Assembly (NCBI GenBank): GCA_948560265.1
Contig: CAOXTD010000001.1
Coordinates: 9,439 to 73,438, forward strand
Direction of reading: 5' to 3'
DNA from: an uncultured Clostridia bacterium
Lineage (GTDB): Bacteria > Bacillota > Clostridia > TANB77 > CAG-508
DNA: 64,000 nucleotides
A model generated the notes under the pieces. That model ran no database searches and was not told the DNA's origin. It was given only the letters and a program-made list of their open reading frames with translations. The stretch's first letter is position 1. Every line of letters starts with the position of its first letter. The position numbers and the translations under genes are program-made. Below, one piece after another: positions 43,376 through 44,754 of this stretch.

Positions 43376-43816
43376 TTGCAAAGAATATATAAAAAGCTAG
43401 CACTCTTCTAATGAAGTGCACCCAAAATGTTGGACAAAAATCTAACATTTGGAGGTGTATTTTTAATATTTTTGTTCAAATTATTTGGACATCTTATTTA
43501 TCCATTGTTAAAACATATTTAGGAGAATTATCTTCTATATGTTTAAATGCTCCAAATTTTCTTTTGTCAACAATTTTGTCCACTATAGTAAACAAAATTA
43601 TAAATTATGACTTTTTTGTTTAGTTAATTGTTTGGCTACAGATTTTTTCGTAATAATTATATGGATTTAAAAGTTTACAACTTTGCTATCGCTTAAGTTG
43701 CATACTATATCTATAACTCACTTTCATTCAATGTCTATAGTAACAACATTCATGGGGAAATTTACTAAGAATATGAAGATTTAATAAAGGTTTTACGTGA
43801 ATATTTTATAAAACCC

Positions 43817-43846
43817 TTGCGTAAAAATGTGAGCATATGCTATAAT
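43817..43846 (+). promoter_or_regulatory. Plus-strand promoter of degenerate unit 1
   Basis: TTGCGT (43817-43822), 18-nt spacer, TGcTATAAT (-10 at 43841-43846). Confidence 0.45.
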
Positions 43847-44024
43847 GATTATAGCTTAAGTAAATAGCAAAATATTAGATGAATTGTGCTGTGCCTCCCT
43901 TCTTCAAGATTTCCTCGTGAGAAAGGATAATAAGATTATAATGTAATCTTACTGTGGAGGCATATTAATTTGCGAAAAAAGAAACTTTGTTAAAATTGTT
44001 TTACATGAATATTTTGTAGAACTC

Positions 44025-44053
44025 TTGCATAAAATATGAGTATATGCTATAAT
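44025..44053 (+). promoter_or_regulatory. Plus-strand (antisense RNA) promoter of unit 2
   Basis: TTGCAT (44025-44030), 17-nt spacer, TGcTATAAT (-10 at 44048-44053). Confidence 0.6.
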
Positions 44054-44059
44054 AATTAT

Positions 44060-44125
44060 AGCTTAAGCAAATACCAAAATAGTAAAGTCAAAAAATCCCT
44101 CGTAGGTGCTACTACGAGGGGTGTT
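44060..44125 (+). ncRNA. Candidate antisense/antitoxin sRNA of unit 2
   Basis: Predicted from the promoter at 44025-44053. It runs into the hairpin at 44097-44120 that also terminates the convergent peptide mRNA. The 3' end is uncertain because the T-run on this strand is poor. Confidence 0.35.
44089..44121 (-). terminator. Terminator of the unit 2 peptide mRNA
   Basis: CCCTCGTAG (44097-44105), loop GTGCTA, CTACGAGGG (44112-44120). On the minus strand it is followed by a T6 run. Lies 6 nt beyond the stop codon. Confidence 0.7.
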
Positions 44126-44126
44126 G

Positions 44127-44219
44127 CTATTTATGTAGATGTTCAATTAGTTCTAATACTAGAACAATTAAATCAACTACAATAGCCATTATCTTTAGTA
44201 GAATTTTTAGCAAAGTCAT
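44127..44219 (-). CDS. 30-aa hydrophobic peptide, type I toxin-like (MTLLKILLKIMAIVVDLIVLVLELIEHLHK)
   Basis: Hand translation. Strong SD GAAAGGAGG 7 nt upstream of the ATG at 44219. Own promoter and terminator. Not in the supplied ORF track because it is too short. Confidence 0.55.
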   Translation of the reverse strand: MTLLKILLKIMAIVVDLIVLVLELIEHLHK

Positions 44220-44265
44220 TGTGTTGCCTCCTTTCTTCAAGATTTCCTTGAAAAAGGATAATAAC

Positions 44266-44294
44266 ATTATAACGCAGATTTACTATAAAGACAA
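44266..44294 (-). promoter_or_regulatory. Minus-strand promoter of the unit 2 peptide mRNA
   Basis: On the minus strand: TTGTCT (44294-44289), 17-nt spacer, TATAAT (44271-44266). Confidence 0.55.
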
Positions 44295-44393
44295 TGTTAA
44301 TCAATAAAATAAAAGAAAATTTGTTTTGAAAAGAATAGTATATTTTTTAATAAAAACAGTTGGAAAGATTTACAAGGAATGTAGAGATTGAAT

Positions 44394-44422
44394 TTGACAT
44401 ATATTAAAATAGATGCTATAAT
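44394..44422 (+). promoter_or_regulatory. Plus-strand (antisense RNA) promoter of unit 3, consensus
   Basis: TTGACA (44394-44399), 17-nt spacer, TGcTATAAT (-10 at 44417-44422). Confidence 0.7.
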
Positions 44423-44428
44423 GACATC

Positions 44429-44512
44429 AAGACGTCGATAGTAGTTCTAAAATAAAAAGGCGTAAAAAAGAAGACTAGGTAGCGGGTCAATGCATACCTA
44501 GTCTTTTCCTTT
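44429..44512 (+). ncRNA. Candidate ~85-nt antisense/antitoxin sRNA of unit 3
   Basis: A consensus promoter is followed about 45 nt later by the hairpin at 44471-44505 and a T-rich tract. It overlaps the 3' end of the convergent peptide mRNA. Confidence 0.45.
44464..44512. terminator. Bidirectional terminator shared by the unit 3 peptide mRNA and the antisense RNA
   Basis: AAGACTAGGTA (44471-44481) / TACCTAGTCTT (44495-44505), with an A6 run before and a T-rich tract after. Confidence 0.65.
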
Positions 44513-44515
44513 GTG

Positions 44516-44584
44516 TTATTCACCTAAGTGTTTTACAATTAAGTAAATCAAATAAAGTTTTAACACTTTTAGTAGTTCTTTCAT
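44516..44584 (-). CDS. 22-aa amphipathic/hydrophobic peptide, type I toxin-like (MKELLKVLKLYLIYLIVKHLGE)
   Basis: Hand translation. SD GAAAGGAGGG upstream of the ATG at 44584. Stop lies 10 nt before the terminator hairpin. Own promoter. Confidence 0.5.
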   Translation of the reverse strand: MKELLKVLKLYLIYLIVKHLGE

Positions 44585-44636
44585 AAAAAGAGCAACCCTC
44601 CTTTCTCTAAGTATTCCTTATCAAAAGGATAATAAT

Positions 44637-44665
44637 AGTATAACGTAAACTTACTGTAAAGACAA
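44637..44665 (-). promoter_or_regulatory. Minus-strand promoter of the unit 3 peptide mRNA
   Basis: On the minus strand: TTGTCT (44665-44660), 17-nt spacer, TATACT (44642-44637). Confidence 0.5.
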
Positions 44666-44754
44666 TATTGATCAATAAAATGAAAGAAAATTTGTTTTGG
44701 ATTGTTGGATAAAAAATAAAAAGATGAGTATGTGACATAAAACTAATCAATTAG

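Follow-up and report, generated by a model that had tools for sequence, protein, structure and literature searches.

In this study we examined a 64,000-nt stretch of the genome of an uncultured Clostridia bacterium (contig CAOXTD010000001.1; hereafter the window) and, within it, an intergenic region that carries a tandem array of three paralogous minus-strand units (43790-44700). We propose that these units are chromosomal modules of the type I toxin-antitoxin (TA) class with the architecture of par, the Fst RNA I/RNA II system, and that two of them are live (unit 3, with an open reading frame (ORF) of 22 aa, and unit 2, with an ORF of 30 aa), the third (unit 1) being a dead relic. Judged from the nucleotide sequence, this reading has in our estimate a probability of roughly 0.7. 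We regard the modules as a set of new peptide and RNA families of a well-known kind, that of the par-like type I TA systems. The functional pairing between their transcripts is probably that of the 5' tail of the antisense RNA with the translation initiation region, and not the 3' overlap at a shared hairpin.

The proposed mechanism is as follows. A sigma-A-type promoter of moderate strength (-35 box TTGTCT) would drive the synthesis of a minus-strand mRNA of ~175 nt, whose first ~31 nt would fold and bury both the 5' end and the purine tract of the Shine-Dalgarno (SD) sequence, so that the full-length message would be translated poorly. A stronger convergent promoter (with a consensus -35 box and/or an extended -10 box) would produce a plus-strand RNA of 70-90 nt ending at the shared hairpin. 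The two predicted RNAs are complementary at the terminator stem-loop, where they overlap, and, by virtue of a direct repeat in the DNA, at the start codon and first codons. By analogy with par, pairing of the small RNA at the initiation region would block ribosome loading. Should the small RNA fall below the level of the mRNA, or should the leader be opened or clipped, a hydrophobic or amphipathic helical peptide of 22 or 30 aa would be made, which presumably damages the membrane.

Organization of the array

The array occupies a gap of 1.59 kb between the stop codon (43221) of a gene encoding a 10,448-aa RCC1-repeat protein and a short-chain dehydrogenase gene (44812); the gap contains no ORF of more than 70 aa. 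The units are connected by a 22-nt block, CCTCCYTTCTYYAAGWWTTCCT, which is present at 43894, 44227 and 44597 and at no other place in the whole 64 kb (chance expectation 0.01), by an adjoining block, AAAGGATAATAAYAKTATAAYG, which also occurs in three copies and is absent elsewhere in the 64 kb, and by longer repeats. A preliminary description of this DNA had recognised three paralogous units at this site and recommended a search for further copies of the conserved block. All of the features that it listed were found in their places, and the search gave no copies beyond the three within 64 kb, together with 77 loci elsewhere that carry the leader motif.

The features of the units are compiled in Table 1. 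Minus-strand promoters, ORFs of 30 and 22 aa with SD sequences, GC-rich hairpins behind the stop codons and convergent plus-strand promoters with extended -10 boxes had all been noted previously in units 2 and 3, and all were located here; the unit 2 copy of the last-named promoter lies one base lower than a quick count had placed it. Both leaders begin with ATCCTTT exactly 6 nt past the -10 box and lead to a GGAGG and then to the ATG. The earlier suggestion that the 5' part of the leader sequesters the SD sequence agrees with the minimum free energy (MFE) folds of both predicted mRNAs (~175 nt), in which nt 2-13 pair with a purine tract including the GGA of GGAGG. The hairpins are located 3-4 nt past the stop codons and fold as terminators in both directions, and that of unit 3 has, on either strand, an A-run before it and a T-run behind it. 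The number of terminator-like sites in the region is three, against 0.4 +/- 0.6 expected by chance.

Table 1. Positions of the predicted elements of the array and of the neighbouring giant gene (window coordinates)
Feature	Position	Strand	Basis or remarks
Unit 3 toxin-mRNA promoter, TTGTCT-17-TATACT	44631..44665 (boxes 44665-44637)	-	-10 box ends 6 nt before the leader
Unit 3 5' leader, ATCCTTTTGATAAGGAATACTTAGAGAAAGGAGG...	44585..44630	-	MFE fold; leader helix covariation across loci
Unit 3 ORF, 22 aa, MKELLKVLKLYLIYLIVKHLGE, peptide family B	44516..44584	-	Homologues of 21-24 aa
Unit 3 shared bidirectional terminator hairpin	44464..44512	both	Inverted repeat with 18-nt arms (I9); folds of both RNAs
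Unit 3 antisense-RNA promoter, TTGACA-17-TGCTATAAT	44394..44422	+	12/12 matches plus TG; consensus, extended -10
Predicted antisense RNA 3, ~90 nt	44429..44520	+	5' tail 44439-44459 is direct repeat D10 of 44570-44590
Unit 2 toxin-mRNA promoter, TTGTCT-17-TATAAT	44260..44294 (boxes 44294-44266)	-	
Unit 2 5' leader, ATCCTTTTTCAAGGAAATCTTGAAGAAAGGAGG, SD-occluding hairpin	44220..44259	-	Fold and covariation
Unit 2 ORF, 30 aa, MTLLKILLKIMAIVVDLIVLVLELIEHLHK, peptide family A	44127..44219	-	
Unit 2 shared bidirectional terminator hairpin	44095..44122	both	Terminator-like score on both strands; folds
Unit 2 antisense-RNA promoter, TTGCAT-17-TGcTATAAT	44025..44053	+	Read from sequence; same promoter in syntenic L055, L059, L062
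Predicted antisense RNA 2, ~70 nt	44060..44130	+	5' start is the palindrome AGCTTAAGC
Unit 1 antisense-RNA promoter, TTGCGT-18-TGCTATAAT, retained	43817..43852	+	Repeats D4, D5 89-90% identical to unit 2 promoter
Unit 1 relic	43853..43965		Antisense 5' end AGCTTAAGT..., fused direct repeat, leader, degenerate toxin promoter
Giant gene	11875-43221	+	Single 10,448-aa ORF, many RCC1/WD40_RLD repeats
Giant gene terminator	43347-43374		

Pairing of the antisense RNAs with the start-codon region

One copy of the direct repeat D10 of unit 3 is situated just past the plus-strand promoter (44439-44459), and the other holds the start codon (44570-44590). Since these copies are transcribed in opposite directions, the 5' tail of antisense RNA 3 is complementary to the initiation region of mRNA 3. 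The duplex predicted by RNAduplex (-24.6 kcal/mol) covers mRNA nt 35-70, with the start codon at nt 47, and none of 500 dinucleotide shuffles was as good (z = -4.2); cross-unit pairs reached about -14 kcal/mol. In unit 2 the repeat is 11 nt long, TAGTAAAGTCA (44080-44090) corresponding to TAGCAAAGTCA (44208-44218), and it abuts and overlaps the start codon. The resulting duplex begins at the AUG and amounts to -15.2 kcal/mol with the short tail and to -19.2 kcal/mol with the first 45 nt. For this unit, pairing with the initiation region is weakly indicated, by position and by the pattern of the family.

The same relationship was observed among 55 related units. The first 45 nt of the predicted antisense RNAs paired with the cognate mRNA at a mean of -28.0 kcal/mol, versus -14.0 kcal/mol for the other 54 mRNAs, and the predicted duplex lay over the start codon in all units except one, for which the promoter had been mis-picked. 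The cognate mRNA ranked first of 55 in 36 cases and from second to sixth in all but one of the others, the lower ranks being due to the presence of close orthologues in the set. The coding sequences are unrelated between the peptide families (see below), and the repeat has therefore co-evolved with each ORF. In our opinion this apparent co-evolution is the strongest single argument for functional antisense pairing.

In units of peptide families A, B and E the predicted antisense start is located 61-89 nt past the stop codon, and in the two window units the hairpin follows the stop codon by 3-4 nt. The overlap of the two transcripts is therefore confined to the terminator, unless this is read through.

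Another feature of the predicted antisense RNAs, whose 5' ends in the window are placed at 44060-44068, 43853-43861 and 44430-44437, is the palindrome with which they start. The 5' palindrome of the small RNA reads GCUUAAGC. A perfect palindrome of at least 8 nt is present at the predicted 5' end in 36 of the 55 distinct units, which were drawn from L009-L085 (shuffle mean 2.4, maximum 8), and at positions 24-48 of the same RNAs in only two. At least nine variants were recorded (GCTTAAGC, AACTTAAGTT, ACTTAATTAAGT, TTACTTAAGTAA, GCTTTAAAGC, GCAATATTGC, GCAATTGC, GCTAGC and GACGTC), and it is palindromy, not sequence, that is conserved at this end. The stems are too short to form a stable hairpin; possible roles include RNA dimerisation, 5'-end protection or a processing signal, or a site acting at the DNA level.

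Related modules in other genomes

When 185,579 species-representative genomes were searched for the leader motif, 77 loci were obtained, all of them in metagenome-assembled genomes (MAGs) of uncultured gut bacteria; 76 are labelled as belonging to the Clostridia lineage and one to the Erysipelotrichaceae. Three more divergent copies with a small ORF were found inside those loci by nhmmer (L082, L055, L021), together with two weak partial matches. The dehydrogenase flanking the array in the window is encoded as an identical protein on mouse-gut metagenome contigs and MAGs, in which the intergenic region is >99% identical to that of the window.

All complete copies have, 7-14 nt behind the leader, an ORF of 21-46 aa that belongs to one of about six dissimilar families. 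A -10 box matching at least five of six positions is present in 69 of 70 distinct upstream regions, and its distance to the leader helix is fixed at 6 nt in 67 of the 70. The toxin-side -35 boxes of the related loci are sub-consensus (TTGTTT, TTGTAA, TTGTCT). The opposite strand of each of the 71 complete units carries, 60-160 nt past the stop codon, a near-consensus TTGACA-17-TATAMT promoter. The antisense promoter is therefore systematically the stronger of the two. It is these fixed positions, in the paralogues as well as in the 77 related loci, and not the scan for promoter-like matches, that lend meaning to the promoters of the window.

The secondary structure of the leader was examined in an alignment (A5) anchored on the -10 box. 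Under a two-helix model 94% of cells are paired. The covariation score of the model is 0.147; shuffles gave 0.073, and none of 500 reached the observed value. The score falls away once the 3' partners are displaced by +/-1 to 3 columns. One pair of the inner helix, for instance, is represented by AU 16 times, by CG 10 times and by UA four times. In the variant from L021 the inner helix has been lost and only UCCUUU-loop-AAAGGAGG is kept, which points to anti-SD/SD pairing as the selected feature of the leader.

The families differ in the region between the stop codon and the antisense start. Each of the 17 units from families A, B and E, the two of the window among them, has a single hairpin there, and 25 of 38 units of families C, D and F have two tail-to-tail hairpins, which we read as separate terminators, one per RNA (L013, L016, L018 and L010 are among these loci). 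With separate terminators the antisense RNA need not overlap the mRNA, and the 3'-located antitoxin RNA of such units would act purely in trans, through the repeat. A non-overlapping TA layout has so far been known only in Gram-negative families, on the 5' side (T1TAdb, PMC8594479).

Where the context was checked, the neighbours of the copies found elsewhere are mostly housekeeping genes (Mur ligase, MinC, PurC, PEP-utilising enzyme), and five of the eight flanking proteins checked contain housekeeping Pfam domains. The leader motif was found in one of 2.9 million viral contigs; on this basis the idea of a phage origin of the modules was dropped.

Peptide families and coding evidence

The small ORFs were assigned to the following families: A (28-30 aa, ...IIENLHK; window unit 2), B (21-24 aa, ...YLIV...; window unit 3), C (26-29 aa, SFDLIWRLIVLLLL plus a polar tail; the commonest), D (MSGYMLIWILLQKIEKLEEEL...), E (MKK..LRVLVL..LEKVVY) and F (42-46 aa, DLIWRLVELLL plus a long charged tail). 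Homologues of the unit 3 peptide were found in L020, L026, L040, L064, L071, L021 and L058. The preliminary description had allowed for the case that related genomes conserve the repeat and not the reading frames. This is not what was observed: the eight distinct family A ORFs are all exactly 30 codons long, and pairwise substitutions number 267, 73 and 258 at codon positions 1, 2 and 3. The low figure for the second position is what would be expected from constraint at this position, the one that determines hydrophobicity.

The unit 2 peptide is a hydrophobic helix with a grand average of hydropathicity (GRAVY) of 1.66, a hydrophobic moment (muH) of 0.42 and a net charge of 0, and its charged residues (K5, K9, D16, E23, E26, H27 and K30) all fall within a 100-degree arc of the helical wheel. 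Families C, D and F consist of short amphipathic helices with long charged tails, not of transmembrane segments, and it is unlikely that these helix-plus-charged-tail peptides are classical pore formers. The profile of these three families matched 453 protein clusters, all unnamed and without Pfam domains.

Family A was not found in a database of 5.8 billion proteins, the query being a 46-aa, upstream-extended form of the ORF, and it is thus invisible to gene callers. The start ATG of this extended ORF lies partly within the -10 box, and its transcription is improbable. Four motif strings of families A and C/F occur in no relevant paper of the searchable literature, and no description of these modules was found in the searchable literature on type I TA systems in MAGs or the gut microbiome. 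Together with the lack of Pfam or NCBIfam matches and of names in databases, this bears out the earlier proposal of an undescribed peptide family.

The RNAs were also compared with Rfam 15. For the part of the window from 42500 to 45500, four matches at chance level (E 2.7-9.6) were obtained at E <= 10 and no antitoxin RNA family was recognised; in 14 related loci nothing was found on the modules at the gathering score.

A side branch of family C, MTAFDLIFFLIVLLLGKNWGKEKDSR (...LLLGKNWGKEKD...), from L015, L036 and L078 has a Trp residue between the hydrophobic helix and the charged tail. This residue is located as in the Fst/Ldr signature and might point to a very distant relationship with Fst; none of the profiles picked up such a relationship for this branch.

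The unit 1 relic and turnover of the array

In unit 1 (43853-43965) there is no ORF, the ATG having become ATT, and no terminator hairpin. Its leader (43928-43894, minus strand) is preceded by a toxin -10 box at 43940-43935 and a -35 box ATGCCT. The junction GGAGGCACAGCACAAT/TCATCTAATATTTTGCTATTTACTTAAGC equals the leader of L055 joined, via the shared repeat ATGCATCTAATA, to the antisense-side flank of L055. Since the two sides match the two repeat sides of this intact unit, unit 1 arose by a deletion between its own direct repeats. The earlier statement that unit 1 has kept both promoter regions and is devoid of the ORF and the terminator thus holds, and what was described as a simple loss was the direct-repeat deletion of an L055-like unit.

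The antisense promoter of unit 1 is intact and no terminator precedes the leader, so that a transcript from it would contain the full anti-leader. The duplexes predicted for this orphan transcript are -63.5 kcal/mol with mRNA 2 and -42.3 kcal/mol with mRNA 3. The anti-leader RNA could therefore act as an orphan antitoxin which represses units 2 and 3.

The array was found at the same site in sister genomes whose dehydrogenases are 93-97% and giant-gene C-termini 91-98% identical to those of the window (at the protein level). It is located between both genes in L055, L059 and L021 + L062, and in L058 the dehydrogenase flank only is seen. Written as a series of peptide families, the composition is A in L059, A + A in L055, B + A + A in L021 + L062, and B + A + A in L058, where the first A carries a frameshift in a T-run (MFF*); that of the window is B + A + relic. 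The number of units at the syntenic site thus varies from one to three among the sister genomes.

Differences were also seen within the species of the window, which is represented by L001-L008 (>99% identical). In L002 and L006 a 3-nt deletion has shortened the spacer of the unit 2 toxin promoter from 17 to 14 nt, and in L003, L004 and L008 the leader of the relic has been converted to the unit 2 type. The array thus appears to decay by repeat-mediated deletion, frameshift, loss of the start codon and promoter lesions. The strain lesions cluster in the toxin signals of unit 2 (44285-44287, 44219, 44269, 44239, 44194), and the antisense side is untouched.

Comparison with known type I TA systems

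Type I TA systems have an mRNA of 150-400 nt, a protein of 20-60 aa and an antisense RNA of 60-200 nt (T1TAdb, PMC8594479). The predicted mRNAs (~175 nt), ORFs (22 and 30 aa) and predicted antisense RNAs (70-90 nt) of the window all fall into these ranges; the length of the peptides, which had been described as shorter than that of most known toxins, is therefore ordinary. Antisense control of the general type I kind is likewise predicted, by the convergent consensus promoters and by start-codon pairing in 54 of the 55 related units.

The closest resemblance is to par of the Enterococcus faecalis plasmid pAD1 (fst RNA I/RNA II) and the chromosomal par-like loci, in which a toxin mRNA of ~200 nt encodes a helical peptide of ~30 aa and an antitoxin RNA of ~65-90 nt pairs through its 5' part with the initiation region (PMC7472228, PMC8594479). 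Convergent promoters and a shared bidirectional terminator are features of the par locus, whose direct repeats, DRa and DRb, supply the complementarity to the initiation region; the toxin mRNA of par has a structured 5' end and a 5' stem-loop that sequesters the SD sequence (PMC7472228). The same convergent promoters and shared bidirectional terminators were identified here. Direct repeats also confer complementarity to the initiation region outside the overlap (strong in unit 3, weak in unit 2 alone), and the folds and covariation argue for a 5' structure that sequesters both the SD sequence and the 5' end. Among Gram-positive bacteria, antisense RNAs that overlap the 3' end and not the ORF, and interact outside the overlap, are limited to Fst/RNAII and SprA1/SprA1as (T1TAdb, PMC8594479).

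There are also differences from par. The window locus has one repeat block instead of DRa plus DRb, and a single leader hairpin does the jobs of the 5'-UH and 5'-SL of par. Also unlike in par, several unrelated peptide families share one almost unchanging leader, and the antisense RNA starts with a palindrome. The window peptides also gave no matches to the Fst models of Pfam and NCBIfam. The YUNR U-turn of the terminator loop, from which the kissing interaction starts, is not present in all par homologues (Weaver review, PMC7472228).

In SprA1/SprA1as of Staphylococcus aureus the antisense gene is likewise located 3' of the toxin gene, overlaps it only at the 3' end and acts in trans on the initiation region by means of a 5' domain outside the overlap, and the membrane-active PepA1 peptide has 30 aa (PMC8594479, PMC7472228), as does the unit 2 peptide. 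PepA1, however, is an Fst-family peptide, and no sequence similarity to the window peptides was seen. We know of no counterpart of the conserved leader in SprA1/SprA1as.

The txpA/RatA and bsrG/SR4 systems of Bacillus subtilis share with the window the convergent toxin and antisense genes and the small hydrophobic toxins. In the B. subtilis systems it is the 3' part of the ORF that the antisense RNA overlaps, and mRNA decay results from pairing within this overlap (PMC8594479, PMC3834814), whereas in the window the overlap does not go beyond the terminator hairpin and the complementarity that is informative is found at the start codon. The preliminary description had likened the layout to all three of fst/RNAII, txpA/RatA and bsrG/SR4. 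Its type I TA-like character is supported by the 77 loci, the cognate pairing and the conserved frames; the par/Fst comparison stands, and the logic of the two B. subtilis systems probably does not apply.

Limited complementarity and action without overlap, as in units of families C, D and F if both of their hairpins terminate, are known for tisB/istR-1, zor/orz, shoB/ohsC and dinQ/agrB (PMC8594479). Unlike in the present modules, the antisense gene of these systems is 5' and divergent, the hosts are Gram-negative and tisB and dinQ are under SOS control. The unit 2 peptide also resembles TisB, which we take to be a hydrophobic helix of 29-30 aa with a narrow charged stripe.

The Clostridioides difficile modules (CD2517.1-RCd8 and others) also come from the class Clostridia, consist of convergent overlapping genes, occur in multiple copies per chromosome and encode toxins unrelated in sequence to other families (PMC6563280, PMC5961336). 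They differ from those of the window in the length of the toxins (34-59 aa) and their Lys-rich tails, in the association of many of them with prophages or CRISPR arrays and in the extensive antisense overlap. The modules described here are smaller, par-like and, in the few contexts checked, mostly placed between core genes. The catalogue of type I systems in Clostridia essentially consists of those of C. difficile and a few Fst-like or TxpA-like matches (PMC6563280).

Alternative explanations

Several observations weigh against the assignment of these units to par-like TA modules. Transcription, toxicity and neutralisation by the RNA are presumed, and all hosts are uncultured; the inactivating lesions that recur in the toxin signals are an indirect hint of toxicity. 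The Fst/Ldr signature (Trp between the transmembrane helix and the charged tail; P/D/S/T-xxx-G) is absent from both window peptides, Pfam and NCBIfam contain no family matching them at E <= 10 (short queries limit sensitivity), and no toxin family was recognised in these databases with the 46-aa extended ORF or with 32 representatives of the families, which yielded only scattered matches to unrelated models. Families C, D and F are not hydrophobic overall (GRAVY -0.4 and -1.1 for the representatives of C and F that were examined), which is atypical of membrane toxins. At the RNA level, the tail duplex of unit 2 alone is not better than shuffles (z = -1.6, 41 of 500 as good), the outer leader helix, in which UCCUUU pairs with AAAGGA, was given in advance by the search pattern, so that only the inner helix is independent, and a proposed inner pair (columns 23-37) is not supported, being unpaired in 18 of 36 sequences. 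Promoter-like matches in this AT-rich region are as frequent as in shuffles (9 versus 10.0 +/- 3.0). Finally, pseudogenes could mean neutrality rather than cost, and L007, whose four changes all affect the toxin signals of unit 2 (start codon ATG to CTG, -10 box TATAAT to TAGAAT, one change in the inner stem of the leader, and K9Q), is represented by a contig of 3.7x coverage and should be treated with caution.

It might be that the RNA circuitry is real and that the peptides are not toxins but small membrane or regulatory proteins tuned by antisense RNA, such as transporter modulators, envelope-stress factors or micro-proteins controlled by small RNAs. Families C, D and F, whose short amphipathic helices carry long charged tails and are not transmembrane segments, would fit such a role, as would the location of most copies elsewhere between housekeeping genes and the single match among the viral contigs. 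We nevertheless consider this unlikely. A double translational lock, composed of a hairpin in cis and an antisense RNA in trans that is expressed from the stronger promoter, is the hallmark of a gene whose product must as a rule not be made. Multiple divergent copies per genome, tandem amplification and fast gain and loss at one site also argue against it, as do the recurrent inactivating lesions, which specifically affect the toxin expression signals, and the lack of a conserved partner gene beside the modules.

Alternatively, the peptides might be exported amphipathic effectors, similar to leaderless bacteriocins or to the cytolytic phenol-soluble modulins (PSMs), with the antisense RNA serving as a production switch. 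Leaderless bacteriocins and PSMs have no signal peptide, and neither has the unit 2 peptide, whose 30-residue helix with a narrow charged stripe (muH 0.42) is like that of lytic peptides. However, leaderless bacteriocins are usually strongly cationic and this peptide has a net charge of 0; no transporter, immunity or regulatory genes were found beside any inspected copy, the neighbours in the window being a giant surface protein and the short-chain dehydrogenase, and bacteriocin loci are not known to have antisense RNAs that block translation and share terminators. This explanation seems to us very improbable.

The view that the region is repeated intergenic DNA without function, a duplicated spacer in decay whose AT-rich sequence has given rise to ORFs, hairpins and promoter-like hexamers by chance, could draw on the shuffle-like frequency of promoter-like matches, on the plainly dead unit and on the fact that the gene callers of the assembly collection called no gene in the array region, but in our assessment it is effectively refuted by the convergent promoters, the repeats that co-vary with the coding sequences in cognate pairing, the codon-position bias, the leader covariation, the retention of the motif with fixed geometry in 77 loci of many genomes and the excess of terminator-like sites.

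Wider significance

The par-like modules of the window may be members of a large undescribed superfamily confined to uncultured low-GC gut Clostridia. This superfamily would be defined, not by its peptides, but by a near-invariant, promoter-proximal leader of 33 nt that acts as a portable "silencing cassette" for at least six dissimilar small ORFs, and it would include a non-overlapping Gram-positive variant in which the 3'-located antitoxin RNA has a terminator to itself. The antitoxin RNAs of the superfamily would carry a co-varying 5' palindrome. We put this forward tentatively, at slightly less than even odds.

The finding leaves the general understanding of type I systems unchanged and is not a conceptual surprise; it is addressed to specialists in TA systems, small RNAs and small proteins. 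The 33-nt leader and its fixed geometry provide a sequence handle that brings up unannotated modules by the dozen in uncultured gut Clostridia, and more than 450 unnamed protein clusters belong to a single peptide family. The loci offer natural material for studying the evolution of such modules, which includes tandem amplification, gene conversion between units, repeat-mediated self-deletion leaving an orphan antitoxin, and the swapping of toxins behind a constant leader. In Firmicutes, cognate-specific pairs of small RNA and leader could be put to use as orthogonal translational switches; the peptides are candidates for membrane-active agents.

Surroundings of the array

A functional link between the array and the giant gene was considered and rejected, since synteny beside this gene is restricted to four sister genomes and the neighbours elsewhere are unrelated. 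The giant gene is intact at a similar length (10,443 aa) on two other contigs and is in pieces in the MAG GCA_948972645.1 (L004), whose contig encodes, at the C-terminal end of the gene, a product of 357 aa with a Peptidase_M23 domain.

Between the terminator of the giant gene and unit 1 there is an AT-rich spacer of 410 nt (43380-43790), to which the sister genomes offer no match. On its minus strand a promoter-like site (43731-43704) leads to ACTTAAGCGATAGCAAAG, similar to an inverted antisense-RNA 5' end, and on its plus strand there is a hydrophobic ORF of 31 aa (43427-43522) with no good SD sequence. A fourth, inverted module at this place was not convincing: the duplex between the putative minus-strand small RNA and the plus-strand ORF region has an energy of -20.4 kcal/mol, compared with -16.3 +/- 3.1 kcal/mol in shuffles (29 of 300 as good).

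Two Rfam matches above the gathering score were recorded a few kb from modules of other genomes, namely an RT-14 RNA (RF02921, 63.9 bits) at 1580-1722 on the minus strand of L058 and a skipping-rope RNA (RF02924, 51.1 bits) at 2430-2514 on the plus strand of L010.

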